DNA of 64,000 nucleotides from Bacillota bacterium (GTDB lineage Bacteria; Bacillota; Limnochordia; Darwinibacteriales; Darwinibacteriaceae): positions 65,972 through 129,971 of the forward strand of contig DURH01000020.1 in NCBI GenBank assembly GCA_012837385.1, read 5' to 3'. Positions 12,222 through 19,441 of this stretch are shown here, piece after piece. A program made the position numbers and the translations under genes. A model generated the notes under the pieces. It had not been told where the DNA came from and searched no databases. It saw only the letters and a program-made list of their open reading frames with translations. How positions within the stretch are numbered: the first letter of the stretch is position 1; each line of letters opens with the position of its first letter.

Positions 12222-13448
12222 ATGTTAAACAAAAACTCTGTGAAGCAGCCCATAGTCCTAGTGTCTGTAGTAACTGCCCTGGCCATGCTGGGGGACTCTC
12301 TGTTGTACAGTCTCCTGCCTCTTTATGCAAGTTCTCTTGGCATCTCCACCTTCATGGTAGGTGTTCTGTTGAGTGCGAACCGCTGGGTACGCCTGGCTGC
12401 CAATTCACTGGCAGCCCGCACTTTTGAACGGTGGAATTTCTCCGTTATCATGCTTGTGGTAAGTATTGTTACGGCCATTACAACGGGAATCTATGCCTTT
12501 CCCATGGGGATGGCAGCCTTTCTAGCAGCTCGCATTCTGTGGGGAATCTGCTACTCCCATTTCCGCTTGGGTGGATACCTTGTGGCGCTGAAGACCAGTC
12601 CGAATCGCTTAGGAACTGCCATGGGAGTCATTCAATCTGTTTCTTATCTGGGAAGCGTGTTCGCTGTGTTAGGCGGCGGGTTACTGGCGGACCACGTAGG
12701 TTACAGCTGGACTTTTGCCATTGTGGCCCTGCTTTCCTTGGGAGCTGTCCCCTTTGTATTTGGCTTGGACCAGCTGGTCACTCCTCCTGTCGCAGCAGAG
12801 GACAAGAGGAACCTGCAGCCGGTGATGAAGGAGCGATCCAACGGCACACTATCCTTGGCCTTCTGTTACGGAGCGGGCTTTATCACCCACCTAGTGGCGT
12901 GGGGTATGGTCTTCTCCAGTCTCTCAGCAGTCCTGCACGAACGAGTTGGATCGGAAATGCAGCTCTTGGGCTGGGCGATTGGGATCGCCACCATCTCAGG
13001 TTTTGTGAACGCGATCAACTGGGTGAGCACCTTGGTGGTTTCCCCCATCGCGGGGAGGCTGTGCGATACCTACGGCAGACGAGGGCCATTTGTAGTCTCA
13101 ACCCTTCTGCAGGCAGGCTCTTTGGCACTTATCGCGGTGATGTCCAATACCTTGGTTGTCATTCTGTTCTTTACGGTGTTCTTCATAGTCACCAACGCTC
13201 AGAAGGTCTTTCTAGATGCGGCGGTGGGAGATGGAGCTCAGGAGAAGGGGTCTGGGCCAGTTGGGTGGTACAATTCATGGCAGGATTTGGGTGCTGCCGC
13301 GGGTCCGGTGCTCGGCTATGGCTTGGCATCTTTTGTCAGCTTTTCCGAGGCTTATCTGGGAGGTGCAGTGCTGCTCCTGGCCATCGGTTTGTCCACGGCA
13401 GGGGTCACGAAACAGACCCGGTATCGTGGGAGAGCTCAGATGGGATAG
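12222..13448 (+). CDS. MFS transporter
   Basis: Twelve predicted TM helices and an MFS-like loop motif; the overlapping 387-aa alternative-frame ORF is a high-GC artefact. Confidence 0.85.
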   Translation: MLNKNSVKQPIVLVSVVTALAMLGDSLLYSLLPLYASSLGISTFMVGVLLSANRWVRLAANSLAARTFERWNFSVIMLVVSIVTAITTGIYAFPMGMAAFLAARILWGICYSHFRLGGYLVALKTSPNRLGTAMGVIQSVSYLGSVFAVLGGGLLADHVGYSWTFAIVALLSLGAVPFVFGLDQLVTPPVAAEDKRNLQPVMKERSNGTLSLAFCYGAGFITHLVAWGMVFSSLSAVLHERVGSEMQLLGWAIGIATISGFVNAINWVSTLVVSPIAGRLCDTYGRRGPFVVSTLLQAGSLALIAVMSNTLVVILFFTVFFIVTNAQKVFLDAAVGDGAQEKGSGPVGWYNSWQDLGAAAGPVLGYGLASFVSFSEAYLGGAVLLLAIGLSTAGVTKQTRYRGRAQMG

Positions 13449-13696
13449 TGAGGTCACGGACACGAGGTACGGGATCGATTTGGTCAAGAAGACAGCAAGG
13501 GAAAAGAGCAGGGGGAGAACAGATGCCAGGCGCTGCAAGTAGAACACGTGGGCTCAACCTCGGTGCAGGGGCTGTGCGCCGAACCGATTATTGATATACT
13601 ATTAGTTGTGGAGGCACGTGGAGCATTACGCGGACGCCAAGACTGAGGTAATAGAGGAAATCCTGGCCAGGGCCGGCTGGGAAGAGAAGTGATGGA

Positions 13697-14431
13697 ATGA
13701 TGAAGTATAGATTCGAAGTGGAGAGAAAGGATTACAGCGATTTCGCCAGCGGACGCGTTTTGTACAGTGCTCCCAACACAACGGCCTTTCCGGTGCGGTT
13801 GGCCAGCGAGATCGTGCAGCGAGCTTTCGATATCTTAGAAGCAAAGGGGGCCAAAGGCCCTTATACCATTTATGATCCCTGTTGTGGTGGTGGGTTCTTA
13901 CTTGCCACTGTCGGGTTCTTATTTTCTGAACGAATCGCGGAGTTGATCGGCACCGATATTGACCCAGATGTACTGGAAGTGGCCGCTAAGAACCTATCCC
14001 TGCTTTCCCAAGCAGGTTTGGAGGGGAGGGAAAGGGAACTACAAGGGTTCGAGGCGGCCTTCGGCAAAGCCTCTCATCGGGAAGCGCTGGCCAGCCTGGG
14101 GCGCCTGCGGGCACTGTTGGGGGGCAGGGAAATCAAGACGTCCTGCCAGCAGCGAGATATTGCCACACCCAACGCTTTCCCCATCGCCGGCAGCGATATC
14201 GTTATGACTGATCTTCCCTATGGGCAGCTGGTATCTTGGGCTGGGGAGCAAAGTTCCACGCCCCTGGAAGGCCTGTTTCAAAACTGCCATGGCGCACTGA
14301 AAAAGGACGCATCGGTGTTGATCATCGTCGCGGACAAGAAGACTAAGCTGCAGCACGAACTCTTTAAGCGCATTCAATACTTTAAACTGGGCAAACGCCA
14401 GATAGCGTTTTTCGAGCCACTGGAGCTGTAA
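13697..14431 (+). CDS. Class I SAM-dependent methyltransferase with a DPPY-like motif (TDLPYG), resembling the UPF0020/RlmL catalytic module without a THUMP domain
   Basis: Motif I YDPCCGGGFLL; acidic GTDIDPD; motif IV IVMTDLPYGQ, the (D/N)PPY variant of amino-group (m6A/m2G) methyltransferases. Confidence 0.7.
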   Translation: MMKYRFEVERKDYSDFASGRVLYSAPNTTAFPVRLASEIVQRAFDILEAKGAKGPYTIYDPCCGGGFLLATVGFLFSERIAELIGTDIDPDVLEVAAKNLSLLSQAGLEGRERELQGFEAAFGKASHREALASLGRLRALLGGREIKTSCQQRDIATPNAFPIAGSDIVMTDLPYGQLVSWAGEQSSTPLEGLFQNCHGALKKDASVLIIVADKKTKLQHELFKRIQYFKLGKRQIAFFEPLEL

Positions 14432-14447
14432 GTAGGAGGCGGCCGGC

Positions 14448-15086
14448 ATGTTTGCCATACTCAGCGTCGACTTTGACTATTTTATCCATGCTTCTGCTGA
14501 GGAACGAGCTCGGTTTTTTCTCAAAGGTGGGGAGGAAATACCCCGGGATCAGCTCTCTGCTTTGTGGGCAGAGCAGTACGCACGCTATCCAGAGTTGAGA
14601 GGCATCGGGGTGGTTGATGAGTATTATTATCTGAAAGCCTTCTTGGAAGGGCTGGCTGGGGACCTCTGGGCTTTTCGCCAGTCAGACACACATAGAGCGA
14701 TCAAAGATCTAATTGACAGGATACCTAGGGAACTACCGCTGCGCATTGTCAACATCGATTTCCATCACGATTACTACCATTATTTCAGCGGATCAGACTA
14801 CTGCAATTGCGGGAACTGGCTGCGCCGGGTGATGGAGGAAAGGCCACACACAGCAGTAAAATGGATTAGGAGGGCAGATTCTCAAATCTGCAGCCTGGAG
14901 GGCGAAGTCCCCTTTGAACATACTACTGATCTGAGGTGTGTGTTTACGGAACGATTTGACTGCCTCTTCATGTGCCGCAGCCCTGAATGGAGCCCGCCCC
15001 ATCTGAGCTGTATGTATGAAGAATTGGTGCAGGCGGCGCTCAAGGCCCCCCAGGATTCTTGGAACCAGGGAGGCCTGTGGGCCTAG
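14448..15086 (+). CDS. Hypothetical protein with SVDFDYF and NIDFHHDYY motifs (possible metal-dependent hydrolase), translationally coupled to the upstream MTase
   Basis: AGGAGG RBS 8 nt upstream; 16-nt gap to the MTase stop; Asp/His-rich motifs; I do not recognise a named family. Confidence 0.55.
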   Translation: MFAILSVDFDYFIHASAEERARFFLKGGEEIPRDQLSALWAEQYARYPELRGIGVVDEYYYLKAFLEGLAGDLWAFRQSDTHRAIKDLIDRIPRELPLRIVNIDFHHDYYHYFSGSDYCNCGNWLRRVMEERPHTAVKWIRRADSQICSLEGEVPFEHTTDLRCVFTERFDCLFMCRSPEWSPPHLSCMYEELVQAALKAPQDSWNQGGLWA

Positions 15087-16360
15087 AAGGTTACTCCACG
15101 CAGCTTGCTGGCGGTAACAATTCTGTCCAGTGCGAGCATGTAGGCGCCCATGCGCAGAGAGGTACCTGCCTGCTCCGCCATATTCCAGACATCGTGAAAT
15201 GCCTTGACCATCGTATATTCCAGTTTCCTGTTGATTTCATCTTCTTCCCACTTCACTGACTGTAGGTTCTGCAGCCATTCGAAGTAGGAAACTACAACCC
15301 CACCGGCATTGGTGAGGATGTCTGGTACTACTGTAATGCCTCTTTCGGCTAGGATGTTATCGGCGTCAGCAGTGGTGGGGCCGTTAGCACCCTCCAGAAC
15401 GATCTGAGCTTTGATGTGAGGAGCATTTTCTGCCGTGATGGCATTCTCTAGGGCTGCGGGTACCAGAATGTCTACCTGCAGCTGGAGCAGTTCTGTGTTG
15501 GATATCCTGCTGAGGCCAGGCGCATCATAGTCTTTCAGAAGCCTGCCCCGCTCTGCCCGGAGAAAACTCCAGATCTCTTCAATATCCAGCCCATCTTCTT
15601 TATACACTGCACCCGATACATCGCTGATGGCCACCACCTGGCAGCCTTCTCTATGCAGGAATCGGGCGGCAGTTCCGCCCACGTTTCCGGCACCCTGTAC
15701 AGCAACCCGTGCCCCTTTCAGATCCAATCCGACCTTGCGCGCGATTTCTCGAGCAGTTAACATGATACCCCTTCCAGTGGCCTCGCTGCGGCCCAGGGAA
15801 CCTCCTAGGGGAACGGGCTTTCCGGTCACAACCGCCAGGGTAAGCTGACCATTGAGTATGCTGTAGGTGTCCATAAACCAGGCCATCACTTCATCATTAG
15901 TGTTGACGTCAGGCGCGGGAATATCAATGTGGGGACCGACTATGGGATAGAGCAGGGTAGTATACTTCCGAGTTAGCCTCTCCAATTCGGCCTTGGACAG
16001 TTTGGTTGCATCCACAGTGATGCCGCCCTTGCCTCCGCCATAGGGGATATCCACTACAGCGCACTTGAAGGTCATGGCTGCAGCCAGGGCCTTGACTTCG
16101 TCCATGTCCACGTTTTGATGGTAGCGGGTACCACCCTTATAGGGACCCCGCACTCCCGAATGCTGTACTCTGTAGCCTTCAAACACTTGGATGGATCCGT
16201 CGTCCATCCGAACTGGCACGGAAACCTTGAGTTCTCTTTCGGGCGACTTGAGCTGAATGTAGTCACGCTTTTCTAGTCCCAGTAGGGCAGCGGCCTGATC
16301 CACAATTCTCAGTATTTCTTCATGGGGATTGTAGCTTTTGCTCATGGATTCGGTTCTCAC
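15083..16360 (-). CDS. gdhA: NAD(P)-dependent glutamate dehydrogenase
   Basis: Glu/Leu/Phe/Val dehydrogenase signature PYGGGKGGITVD; C-terminal Rossmann fold GAGNVGG. Confidence 0.9.
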   Translation of the reverse strand: MRTESMSKSYNPHEEILRIVDQAAALLGLEKRDYIQLKSPERELKVSVPVRMDDGSIQVFEGYRVQHSGVRGPYKGGTRYHQNVDMDEVKALAAAMTFKCAVVDIPYGGGKGGITVDATKLSKAELERLTRKYTTLLYPIVGPHIDIPAPDVNTNDEVMAWFMDTYSILNGQLTLAVVTGKPVPLGGSLGRSEATGRGIMLTAREIARKVGLDLKGARVAVQGAGNVGGTAARFLHREGCQVVAISDVSGAVYKEDGLDIEEIWSFLRAERGRLLKDYDAPGLSRISNTELLQLQVDILVPAALENAITAENAPHIKAQIVLEGANGPTTADADNILAERGITVVPDILTNAGGVVVSYFEWLQNLQSVKWEEDEINRKLEYTMVKAFHDVWNMAEQAGTSLRMGAYMLALDRIVTASKLRGVTF

Positions 16361-16496
16361 CTCAAAGCTTTGTTGTAGCGGCGCTGATGGGCGCCACTCA
16401 GAGTTTTCATCAGTTTACTAGTCTTATGTTCTAATGTCAACGTCAGTTGTGATGACCCCTTTCTTCATCTTTTGCCCTGCAGAAAGGAAAGATGCA

Positions 16497-17921
16497 ATGA
16501 AACAGATCTTGTCACTTCTTTACATCGGTTATCTCTTCTTCGTCATTCTGCTCATCTTCTTTAGCCGGAAAAAACCAACTCAGCGTTTCAGTTGGATTTT
16601 GGTGCTCATTTTTCTGCCTGTGGTTGGCCTCATCGTGTACAGCCTGATGGGGAGTGAGATGTACTGGGATTACAAACGCAGTAGAATCCGGCAGCGCCAT
16701 CGGGCCACATTTCTTGAGCTAGACACGATTGTGGGGCAGCTGCACAACCCCTCAGACGCAGAGCTGTCCCCAACTCAGGAGTTCCACTACAAGTGGTGCG
16801 GCAGCATTTTTACGGATAATAACGGAGTGGAAGTGTTTACAAACGGCAGGCCGAAGTTCGCTCGCCTGTTCGAGGATTTGAGGGCGGCTGAGGATCACAT
16901 TCATGTCCAGTACTTTACGATCCACAATGATCCCGTGGGCAAAGAACTCATTTCTATCCTTCGGGAAAAGGCTCAGCAGGGCGTGGAAGTGAAGCTTCTC
17001 TATGACAGCTTTGGGTGTTGGTTTACTTTTGTCCGGCCCCTGTTTAGGGAGCTAAAGAACGCTGGCGGTAAGATTCAGGGCATTAGGCCCAGGGCCAGGG
17101 CTTTAAACTACCGGAATCACCGCAAACTGGTGATCATCGATGGACAGGTTGGCTACTTGGGCGGAATGAACGTGGGAGTGCACTATGCTGAGGGAGTGGG
17201 AGGAAAAGAGTGGAGAGACACCCACGTGCGCCTTACTGGAGGGGTGGTTCGGGATCTCCAGCAGATCTTCATCTCCGATTGGATTGCCTCTGCCAAGGAA
17301 GGACGCCTTGGTTTCCGCGACCGCTTGCGCCACTATTTCCCGGAGGCTAAGGCAAATGGTACCCTCCCGGCGCAGATTATCGCCAATGGTCTGTACAACA
17401 AGTACATCGGCCAGGATGTGATCAATGTGAGTTACTTCAACCTGATCAATGGCGCCAAGGAGAGGCTGTGGATTCAGACTCCCTATTTCGCCCCATCGGA
17501 GCCCGTGCTCCAGAGCCTAAAAACGCTGGCTCAGAGAGGCGTGGATGTACGTATCATGACCTCATCCTACTACACCTTCGGAGGGCTGTTTCACCACAAC
17601 ATTAAGAACTACTTTTTCCGCCAGCTTATCGGCAGTGGCGTGAGGGTGTTCAAGTACAAGGGGATCATGCATGCCAAGACCATGCTCATCGATGATGAGC
17701 AGCTCTGTATCGGCACCGTGAATCTCAACGTACGCAGTCTGGAGAGGGATGATGAGCTCTTCATCTACTTCGAGTCTCCTGAACAGAATGCGCAGTACTC
17801 CGAGATTTTCCAGAAAGATTTGGAGGATAGCTGGGAGCTGGATTATGCCAGATTCCGGAATGAGACCCTGCTCTCCCGGGCCTTAGAGTCAGTTGTGAGC
17901 CTTTTCTCTCCTCTGTCGTGA
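16497..17921 (+). CDS. cls: Cardiolipin synthase (two PLD/HKD motifs)
   Basis: Two N-terminal TM helices; HKD motifs NHRKLVIIDGQVGYLGGMN and MHAKTMLIDDEQLCIGTVNL. Start ATG 16497 has RBS AAAGGAAAG. Confidence 0.9.
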   Translation: MKQILSLLYIGYLFFVILLIFFSRKKPTQRFSWILVLIFLPVVGLIVYSLMGSEMYWDYKRSRIRQRHRATFLELDTIVGQLHNPSDAELSPTQEFHYKWCGSIFTDNNGVEVFTNGRPKFARLFEDLRAAEDHIHVQYFTIHNDPVGKELISILREKAQQGVEVKLLYDSFGCWFTFVRPLFRELKNAGGKIQGIRPRARALNYRNHRKLVIIDGQVGYLGGMNVGVHYAEGVGGKEWRDTHVRLTGGVVRDLQQIFISDWIASAKEGRLGFRDRLRHYFPEAKANGTLPAQIIANGLYNKYIGQDVINVSYFNLINGAKERLWIQTPYFAPSEPVLQSLKTLAQRGVDVRIMTSSYYTFGGLFHHNIKNYFFRQLIGSGVRVFKYKGIMHAKTMLIDDEQLCIGTVNLNVRSLERDDELFIYFESPEQNAQYSEIFQKDLEDSWELDYARFRNETLLSRALESVVSLFSPLS

Positions 17922-17989
17922 AAATCTCACTTCCCCTTTTCCCCCTTAGGCGGTATTATAGGGACAGACCTTTTTGGGGGAGGAGTATT

Positions 17990-18574
17990 GTGGACAAGGC
18001 GCATCTTTATGTTGTACTGACCAGAACCAACACAGTCATTTCTCGCCTGATCCACCTCGTGACTCGTGATGAGTACACCCATGCTGCCTTGGCGCTGGAT
18101 AGGGACCTCAAGGAAATGTACAGTTTTGCGCGCAAATACACACATAATCCCTTCATTGGACGATTCAAACACGAGAGACTGGACGAGGGTATCTACAGGT
18201 TGGCCAAACGGCTGCCTGGGTTGATTCTAGAGATTGAGGTGGCTGAGGAACAGTATCAGCAAGTGAGCAGGCTCATTCAGGAGTTTGTCGACAACAGCTC
18301 GCGTTATAAATACAACTGTCGTGGCTTAGTTTATGGGCTGCTCAACAAGCCCACTAAGCGCGACGATCGCTTTTTGTGCTCCCAGTTTGTCTATTATCTA
18401 CTCAAGGAAAGCGGAGTCGTGGACTTCCACATGCCCGCCAACTTGGTTAAGCCGCAGCACTTCCTGGATCTGCAGGCCAGGGTTGTCTATCAAGGCGACT
18501 TGAAAGAGCTTCTGGGAACTGCGGGGCAGGGAGGGAGATTTCGCATTAGGCGGTGGGTTAAAAAAACTGGCTAA
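17990..18574 (+). CDS. Circularly permuted papain-like (NlpC/P60-LRAT superfamily, YiiX/DUF830-like) protein; GTG start
   Basis: His-before-Cys arrangement (..YTHAALAL.. then ..DRFLCSQFVYY..). GTG 17990 has a strong RBS GGGGGAGGAG; the upstream 24 codons overlap the cls stop and lack an RBS. Confidence 0.6.
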   Translation: MDKAHLYVVLTRTNTVISRLIHLVTRDEYTHAALALDRDLKEMYSFARKYTHNPFIGRFKHERLDEGIYRLAKRLPGLILEIEVAEEQYQQVSRLIQEFVDNSSRYKYNCRGLVYGLLNKPTKRDDRFLCSQFVYYLLKESGVVDFHMPANLVKPQHFLDLQARVVYQGDLKELLGTAGQGGRFRIRRWVKKTG

Positions 18575-18586
18575 CGCTGACGTTAA

Positions 18587-19441
18587 GTGATGGGGGTGGA
18601 CGCTGTGCAGATTTCCAAAAAAGAGGAAGCGCTGAGGCGCTTTGCAGGAAACCTAGAGCTGTTCCGGTGCCCTATCTGTCAGGAATCTTTTCGGCGCCAC
18701 GAAGAGGGTTTTCGCTGCTTAGGAGGGCATCATTTTGATCTGGCCCGCAGCGGTTACCTGAATCTATATATGGGTTCACAGAGCAGTATTTACGATCGGA
18801 GCCTGTTTGCCGCCAGGCAACAAGTGTTTATGCGGGGAGTGTACGATCCTCTTATTGCTGAGGCTGCTTCTCTGATCCAAAGCCAGTCCGCTGCCCACCC
18901 TGTCATCCTAGATGCTGGCTGCGGGGAAGGCTCCTTTTTGGCGCGCTTGCAGGGGCGGTTCTCGGGCCCTTTGATCGGAGTGGATATTTCTAAGGATGGG
19001 ATTCGTTTAGCCGCTGCTAGCTACCGCTCTGCTATGTGGTGTGTGGGTGATCTGGCCTCTCTTCCTCTGGCCGACTCTTGTACAGACGTTATCCTCAACG
19101 TTCTATCCCCAGCCAACTATGGTGAGTTCCAGAGGGTGCTCAAGCCTGGAGGTATGGTGATCAAAGTGGTTCCTGGGCCAGCCTACCTGCAGGAGATCAG
19201 GGAGCGCCTTCAGGGGAGTGAAGACTATTCCAATGATGAGGTGCTGTCGCTTCTGGAAGAGCGGCTGGAGATAGTGCAGCAGAAGAGCCTGTACTACCGA
19301 GTGCCAGTAGATCAAGGACTGTGGAAGGCTTTGGTGGAGATGACGCCCCTCACCCAGCACCGCAGGGTGGAAGGGCTGCCTCCGAAAACACTCACCGTTG
19401 ATCTGCTGGTTGTGAAGGGTATGTTGGACTTTTCCAGATAA
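18587..19441 (+). CDS. rlmA: 23S rRNA (guanine745-N1)-methyltransferase RlmA-like (N-terminal Zn ribbon plus SAM MTase); alternative GTG start at 18605
   Basis: Zn-ribbon FRCPICQ...FRCLGGHHFDLARSGYLNL; MTase motif I ILDAGCGEGSF. Confidence 0.8.
   Translation: MMGVDAVQISKKEEALRRFAGNLELFRCPICQESFRRHEEGFRCLGGHHFDLARSGYLNLYMGSQSSIYDRSLFAARQQVFMRGVYDPLIAEAASLIQSQSAAHPVILDAGCGEGSFLARLQGRFSGPLIGVDISKDGIRLAAASYRSAMWCVGDLASLPLADSCTDVILNVLSPANYGEFQRVLKPGGMVIKVVPGPAYLQEIRERLQGSEDYSNDEVLSLLEERLEIVQQKSLYYRVPVDQGLWKALVEMTPLTQHRRVEGLPPKTLTVDLLVVKGMLDFSR

Follow-up and report, generated by a model that had tools for sequence, protein, structure and literature searches.

Do two genes that stand side by side in a bacterial genome act on a common substrate, or do they share no more than their place on the chromosome? 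The question is raised by two consecutive genes, here called A and B, in a 64,000-nucleotide (nt) stretch of a Bacillota bacterium genome (GenBank assembly GCA_012837385.1, contig DURH01000020.1, positions 65,972 to 129,971 of the forward strand; this whole stretch is referred to as the window), which a sequence-only reading had taken for a dedicated module of a methyltransferase and a putative hydrolase. We find that they are probably two functionally unrelated neighbours in one Limnochordia-like Bacillota lineage, with A being an AviRa-type methyltransferase and B apparently a rearranged arginase-like metallohydrolase. Both can be regarded as genuine genes because each has many homologues (711 for A and 122 for B in a word-indexed search), and they are probably co-transcribed.

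Gene A and the AviRa family

We observed that A matches the Pfam family PF11599 (rRNA methyltransferase AviRa) with an E value of 3.3e-83 and 279.1 bits, at a cut-off of 25.7, over profile positions 1-232 of 232. A search of the Protein Data Bank (PDB) sequences returned the AviRa structures 1o9g/1o9h (E 8.4e-49, query 1-237 versus chain 1-238), and the identity between A and AviRa is 44% across 232 aligned positions. Both methyltransferase motifs of AviRa are present in A (Table 1), with D60, P61, C63 and G64 of motif I, as well as D172, P174, Y175 and G176 of motif IV, being invariant among 34 AviRa-family sequences, A included. These matches show that A, as judged from its sequence, belongs to the known AviRa family as one of its ordinary representatives, and they make it a putative 23S rRNA (guanine2535-N1)-methyltransferase, its target being assigned by homology. 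The family is common in Clostridia, Paenibacillus and Cohnella (word-indexed search), and the source labels of the homologues are mostly "hypothetical", with some reading "23S rRNA (guanine2535-N1)-methyltransferase". Translation of A probably begins at its second ATG (13700), which is where a database protein identical to A and annotated in a Firmicutes metagenome-assembled genome (MAG) begins (P0121, 243 aa).

According to the review PMC13602947, which cites Treede et al. 2003 and Mosbacher et al. 2003, AviRa methylates N1 of G2535 in 23S rRNA and accounts for avilamycin resistance in the producer, and the same review gives N1, not N2, as the position methylated by the family. By homology, A would perform an S-adenosylmethionine (SAM)-dependent methylation of 23S rRNA at N1 of G2535, which lies in helix 91; in the avilamycin producer this modification blocks orthosomycin binding. 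In its own lineage, A may serve to modify rRNA or to provide intrinsic resistance.

The sequence-only reading had described A as an rRNA base N-methyltransferase without a THUMP domain, and this was borne out by the Pfam scan, which found neither THUMP nor any other additional domain in A. Its placement of A with the UPF0020/RlmL/Trm11 type did not hold, since PF01170 (UPF0020/RlmL-like) matches A with E 1.5e-4 and 22.0 bits, under the cut-off of 22.3, as opposed to the full-length AviRa match at 279 bits. We also considered A as a defence gene and rejected it, the PADLOC 'mad2' match (E 3.8e-10) covering the generic methyltransferase core only and lying far below the AviRa match.

Gene B, its family and its predicted metal site

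Searches with B gave no match in Pfam, NCBIfam or PADLOC, and the PDB sequences gave none with the single sequence and none with the family profile even at E 10, in agreement with the earlier statement that it belongs to no named family. At E <= 1e-3, a profile search against 1.84 billion representatives retrieved 1,887 clusters, and at E <= 1e-10 it retrieved 1,084, counted as clusters at 50% identity. All 122 homologues from the word search are labelled "hypothetical", and their sources include Acetivibrio clariflavus, A. thermocellus, Clostridium thermarum, Limnochordia, Peptococcaceae, Tissierellia and Halanaerobiales; a second, more distant branch of the family comprises proteins of 240-260 aa. 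We examined an alignment of 133 diverse members, whose columns are on average 16% identical, and a smaller one of 48 close members. Across the 133 members D8, D10, W40, H82, H106, D108, W124, W139, S178 and H185 are invariant, D8 and D10 being invariant in the smaller alignment as well, and at least 90% conservation is reached by N102, D104, C121, G122, N123, S145, C176, W181 and P183. No domain fusions were found among the longer family members examined. A phage origin of the family was rejected, there being only two marginal PHROG matches among the 133 members and 0 tblastn matches in 50,697 phage genomes.

Next, we investigated what B resembles in structure. The AlphaFold2 model, built from 48 sequences, has a mean predicted local distance difference test score (pLDDT) of 92.4 and a predicted template-modelling score (pTM) of 0.88, and shows six beta-strands alternating with helices. 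A Foldseek search with the model ranked guanidinopropionase first (E 1.3e-3, probability 0.82), followed by agmatinase and arginase and then by acetylpolyamine amidohydrolases (APAHs) and histone deacetylases (HDACs); the template-modelling scores are low, at 0.29-0.37, with ~125 of 200 residues of B superposing sequentially with arginases. Scanning single members against Pfam at permissive E values, we found weak matches to PF00491 (Arginase) in 28 of the 48 close and 16 of the 133 diverse members (best E 7e-4), always between B residues ~96-132 and profile positions ~110-146, which is the DAHxD region, and the best score in the family is 16.8 bits at a cut-off of 22, over profile positions 109-146 only, the protein of the window itself having no match. 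Similarly, 13 of the 133 members weakly match PF12640 (UPF0489; best E 1.4e-3), with top scores of 16.9-17.7 bits at a cut-off of 27 and coverage of profile positions 1-47 only. No other recurrent Pfam family appeared in these scans. Profile positions 1-2 of UPF0489 fall at residue 83 in one member (P0293) and at residue 168 in another that carries an N-terminal extension of ~85 residues (P0257), and therefore ~80 residues specific to the B family precede the point at which that domain starts.

Profile-profile comparison with hhalign extended these similarities to individual residues. Against human arginase-1 (sequence checked against PDB 1wva), the B family aligned with E 0.19, a weak statistic because the template is a single sequence; in this alignment H82 falls on H101, D104-x-H106-x-D108 on D124-x-H126-x-D128 and CGNW on SGNLHG. 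For the N-terminal segment, the top match in arginase-1 puts B residues 4-12 on 228-236, HLSFDVDGL, which holds the S-x-D232-x-D234 motif, likewise with weak statistics. The human UPF0489 protein C5orf22, whose sequence was checked by its 94-99% identity to primate orthologues carrying PF12640, gave a better match than arginase-1, with H82 on its H25. Using an alignment of 22 UPF0489 sequences, B 73-146 aligned onto positions 16-105 (E 1.8e-4, probability 49%) and B 2-70 onto positions 247-315 (E 2.8e-3), with LSVDFDYF placed on LDIDLDFF. All six equivalents of the arginase ligands (H82, D104, H106, D108, D8 and D10) belong to the positions that show invariance or at least 90% conservation across the 133 members. 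The predicted strands end just before them, strand 2-8 leading to D8/D10, strand 75-79 to H82 and strand 98-103 to D104-D108, and in the model the ligand residues would lie at the C-terminal strand ends, the edge on which a parallel sheet carries its active site.

The order of the motifs along the chain differs. In B, SxDxD comes first, then H, then DxHxD, whereas in arginases and UPF0489 proteins the order is H, then DxHxD, then SxDxD. We read B as rearranged because its SxDxD strand and the helices that follow it stand at the N-terminus, unlike in arginase and UPF0489; no literature on a permuted arginase fold was found. Within the arginase-deacetylase family, UPF0489 forms a recognised clade (PMC5454378), and one UPF0489 member, BipC of biphenomycin biosynthesis, in which EEHxE, DxHxD and DIDLD follow one another in that order, has been shown experimentally to be a Mn-dependent peptide arginase (PMC12707348). 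The scores of B fall below the gathering thresholds of PF00491 and PF12640 and its motif order is different, so that B formally stands outside both families, yet very probably works like them.

These comparisons also bear on what had been said of the motifs themselves. All of those quoted were found again, namely TDLPYG (A 171-176), SVDFDYF (B 6-12), NIDFHHDYY (B 102-110) and CNCGNW (B 119-124), and it is very probable that the conserved Asp/His motifs of B bind the metal of a hydrolase. The suggestion of a deacetylase-like hydrolase points to the right superfamily, given the resemblance to the arginase/deacetylase fold in the Foldseek searches, while the accompanying suggestion of a DHH/phosphoesterase was discarded, with no match by sequence or by fold. 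The sequence comparisons and the model are explained most economically by taking B for a compact, rearranged arginase/UPF0489-like putative metallohydrolase. By inference, all six residues would meet at a single metal site, Mn would be the metal and the reaction would be of the ureohydrolase type. As a cytoplasmic member of a family of ~200-260 aa with a predicted arginase-type alpha/beta fold, B would hold a binuclear Mn2+ centre as in arginases, agmatinases and UPF0489 peptide arginases, and would activate a metal-bridging hydroxide for attack on a guanidino or amide carbon. With the S-x-D-x-D strand and its helices moved to the N-terminus, it would represent a rearranged mini-version of the fold. 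More tentatively, and with a likelihood that we place a little short of even, the B family could be an unrecognised arginase/UPF0489 branch in which the S-x-D-x-D strand has been transplanted to the N-terminus and a full binuclear Mn site is nevertheless rebuilt, yielding a minimal ureohydrolase or peptide/protein arginase of ~200 aa with a new substrate.

Two other readings of B draw on the same superfamily. B could be a mononuclear Zn2+ deacetylase or amidohydrolase with HDAC/APAH chemistry instead of a binuclear Mn2+ ureohydrolase, a reasonable rival that we nonetheless consider unlikely: all six arginase-type ligands are kept, beyond the D/H/D triad, ureohydrolases rank above deacetylases in both fold searches and with both models, and the weak Pfam matches are to Arginase and UPF0489 and never to Hist_deacetyl. 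A non-catalytic role, as an arginase-like pseudo-enzyme or a metal- or ligand-binding protein, would be in keeping with the truncation of the model to six strands and with the pseudo-arginase and pseudo-deacetylase clades that the superfamily contains (PMC5454378), but it appears very improbable, as the six ligand equivalents together with W40, W124, W139, S178 and H185 are invariant or nearly so among the 133 members at a mean column identity of 16%, which is typical of an active site.

The surroundings of B homologues elsewhere vary. In A. clariflavus (L001:3900-5618 and L002:3900-5618), the B homologue lies 255 nt after the spermidine synthase gene speE. The agmatinase gene speB is often located after speE, and this adjacency, seen in A. 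clariflavus only, could hint at an agmatinase-like activity of B. The genes of the distant 240-260-aa branch (L142:6001-6735, L143:77-787 and L053:6001-6582) sit in long co-directional arrays of small unannotated open reading frames (ORFs), with neighbours that include DnaB_C, Zeta_toxin, ADDT, DUF1653, Rep3, TraX, YodL, DUF3846, SprT-like and PemK, and the L053 copy belongs to the conjugative Oscillibacter plasmid pOBV01 (AP012045.1 57057-57782). This branch has the look of a cargo carried by conjugative elements in gut Firmicutes, and the family would comprise one chromosomal branch in Clostridia and another on conjugative elements of gut Firmicutes.

Adjacency of A and B across genomes

To place the pair in a wider set of genomes, the neighbourhoods of both genes were compared. 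On the B side, one genome per species was scanned, giving 57 loci in which the partner was sought within 6 kb, and an AviRa homologue was present near B in five (L005-L009, with B at least 63% identical), the other 52 being without A. All five have the convergent dehydrogenase gene gdh, and L007-L009 additionally have the upstream transporter gene of the major facilitator superfamily (MFS). On the A side, B was present in 13 of 80 metagenomic loci, each of the 13 with gdh downstream, and absent from 67. Homologues of A at 58-63% identity occur without B, as do all of those at <=52%, and homologues of B at <=62% identity occur without A; the A. thermocellus homologue of B stands alone. Every co-occurrence falls in one synteny block, (MFS)-GrpB-A-B-gdh, and shared descent therefore accounts for the co-occurrence of A and B. 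Outside the block, clustering of the flanking ORFs (three neighbours on either side, 58 B loci) revealed no recurrent neighbour of A or B, and Pfam censuses of the neighbours of B returned scattered unrelated families only. We conclude that A and B adjoin each other through a gene order particular to one lineage, in which it was passed on along with the genes around it.

The layout of the window itself is summarised in Table 1. The two genes are separated by a 16-nt spacer (14432-14447), and the TAG stop of B (15084-15086) shares 4 nt with the stop of gdh; the ORF positions, the gap, the AGGAGG ribosome-binding site (RBS) and the convergent overlap, as read from the sequence, all agree with what had been reported. 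Scanning 13300-15400, we found no promoter-like sites and terminator-like sites at chance level, and an Rfam scan of the whole window found no RNA families. Upstream of A lies the remnant of a decayed GrpB gene, which has lost its N-terminus and ~82 internal codons. In relatives, an intact GrpB of 196 aa abuts the start of A (L062; Pfam PF04229, E 7e-56), and the presence of the remnant 5' of A indicates an ancestral block of MFS-GrpB-A-B with convergent gdh.

Table 1. Features of the A-B locus, in window coordinates.
Feature	Position	Strand	Length	Remarks
MFS transporter	12222-13448			Upstream of the GrpB remnant
GrpB pseudogene remnant	13527-13674	+		GrpB residues 59-87 and 170-191 only, in two different frames
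Gene A ORF	13697-14431	+	244 aa	
A motif I, DPCCGGG	13874-13894	+		Residues 60-66; SAM-binding; aligns to AviRa DPCCGSG
A motif IV, TDLPYG	14207-14224	+		Residues 171-176; identical to AviRa TDLPYG
RBS of gene B, AGGAGG	14434-14439	+		Within the A-B spacer, 8 nt 5' of the ATG of B; read from the sequence
Gene B ORF	14448-15086	+	212 aa	
B SVDFDYF, S6-x-D8-x-D10	14463-14483	+		N-terminal; counterpart of arginase S-x-D-x-D and UPF0489 DIDLD
B His82 (DTH/DSH)	14691-14693	+		Counterpart of arginase His101 (GGDHS) and UPF0489 EDH; invariant
B N-I-D104-F-H106-H-D108	14751-14771	+		Counterpart of arginase D124-A-H126-x-D128 and UPF0489 D-S-H-P-D
B C-G-N-W	14808-14819	+		Residues 121-124; counterpart of arginase S-G-N-L-H-G and UPF0489 E-N-W (hhalign)
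gdh	15083-16360	-	425 aa	Glu/Leu/Phe/Val dehydrogenase; Pfam ELFV_dehydrog PF00208 and PF02812

Several observations weigh against the reading of A and B as unrelated neighbours with the functions assigned here. The coupling within the lineage is tight, with A and B 16-25 nt apart and a strong RBS, and 18 loci, reaching down to ~63% protein identity, preserve this layout; furthermore, the G2535 activity is known for the Streptomyces enzyme only, and the convergence of D8/D10 with H82/D104/H106/D108 is deduced from secondary-structure positions only. The 16-nt spacing, the AGGAGG site and the retention of order and spacing in 5 genome and 13 metagenome loci, with protein identities of 60-77%, are also what would be expected if A and B formed a dedicated module on one substrate, either a modify/demodify pair or small-molecule tailoring enzymes, or if they had a local functional link in this lineage. 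We regard such a module or link as decidedly unlikely, as every co-occurrence lies in the one block and is explained by shared descent, the partners are already missing at 58-63% identity for A or <=62% for B, a fused methyltransferase domain occurs in 0 of the 150 best B-family representatives, and the characterised homologue of A needs no hydrolase partner, going by PMC13602947. The earlier proposal of a two-gene module thus finds co-conservation in just 5 of 57 and 13 of 80 loci, all within that block; judged by the refuting condition that came with the proposal, a lack of co-conservation, the module is essentially refuted, and the modify/demodify idea is left unsupported by a lineage-specific pairing with no conserved partner elsewhere. 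Extending the unit upstream does not fare better: MFS, GrpB, the AviRa-type gene and B could form a small antibiotic-resistance islet that joins efflux, a nucleotidyltransferase-fold protein and ribosome methylation to a drug-inactivating hydrolase, B, acting for instance by guanidino or amide removal, but we hold this to be highly unlikely. GrpB has decayed in this window, which argues against joint selection of the block; in addition, the majority of B-family genes occur singly in unrelated surroundings, and no part of the block has an experimental link to such a role. Two unrelated neighbours in one lineage remains the reading that we prefer.

Other genes nearby add some observations of their own. 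A second rRNA guanine-N1-type methyltransferase of 284 aa is encoded 4 kb away, at 18587-19441 (+), and combines an RlmA N-terminal zinc ribbon (PF21302) with a class I methyltransferase domain. Before it, at 17918-18574 (+), lies an ORF of 218 aa that overlaps by 4 nt the stop of a cardiolipin-synthase-like gene (16434-17921) and has no Pfam match at E <= 1e-4. In three Limnochordia-like relatives (L009:6619-7883, L066:6360-7624 and L067:6371-7635), tblastn matches gdh in two separate segments, one joining the other at residue 277/278, which points to either a frameshift or an assembly error in the gdh of these relatives.

Significance and comparison with known systems

Of the two genes, B is the part worth following: its family is large and fully unannotated, and seemingly represents a stripped-down, re-ordered arginase/UPF0489 fold with its set of metal ligands intact. 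If active, B would be the smallest known ureohydrolase-type scaffold and would exemplify an old enzyme fold in which a segment has been rearranged in a non-circular way, and about two thousand "hypothetical protein" clusters, some of them on mobile elements of gut bacteria, would become testable candidates, with agmatinase, peptide arginase and guanidine hydrolase as candidate activities. A, for its part, extends a known family of resistance-type rRNA methyltransferases by one member. Homologues of AviRa occur commonly in anaerobic Bacillota that are not producers, as well as in Paenibacillus, a finding that bears on intrinsic insensitivity to orthosomycins.

When compared with AviRa of Streptomyces viridochromogenes, A matches end to end at equal length, has the DPCCGxG and TDLPYG motifs and shares the lack of an added RNA-binding domain. 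It differs in coming from an anaerobic Bacillota MAG without known orthosomycin production, in a locus without an aviRb or ABC-transporter context, and in having an rRNA target assigned from its relatives. With the UPF0020/RlmL/Trm11 m2G methyltransferases, A has in common the Rossmann methyltransferase core, the (D/N)-[LP]-P-[YF] form of motif IV and the weak PF01170 match, but it is without THUMP, its score is below the cut-off, and the AviRa family targets N1, not N2.

For B, the likeness to DHH phosphoesterases is confined to superficial Asp/His-rich motifs. B departs from the arginase/agmatinase ureohydrolases, including the peptide arginase OspR (PDB 8brp), in having six strands and not eight, in the rearranged order of its motifs and in a PF00491 score below the cut-off. 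In comparison with UPF0489 (C5orf22, BipC), it is half the size, scores below the Pfam threshold and has no gene context of RiPPs (ribosomally made peptides that are modified after translation), and its D-x-D strand and helices precede the H and DxHxD strands instead of following them. Nevertheless, in the profile-profile comparisons UPF0489 matches the core of B most strongly (E 1.8e-4), and the two share the three metal motifs, xxH, DxHxD and [DS]-I-D-x-D-[FY]-F, together with (E/G)-N-W.

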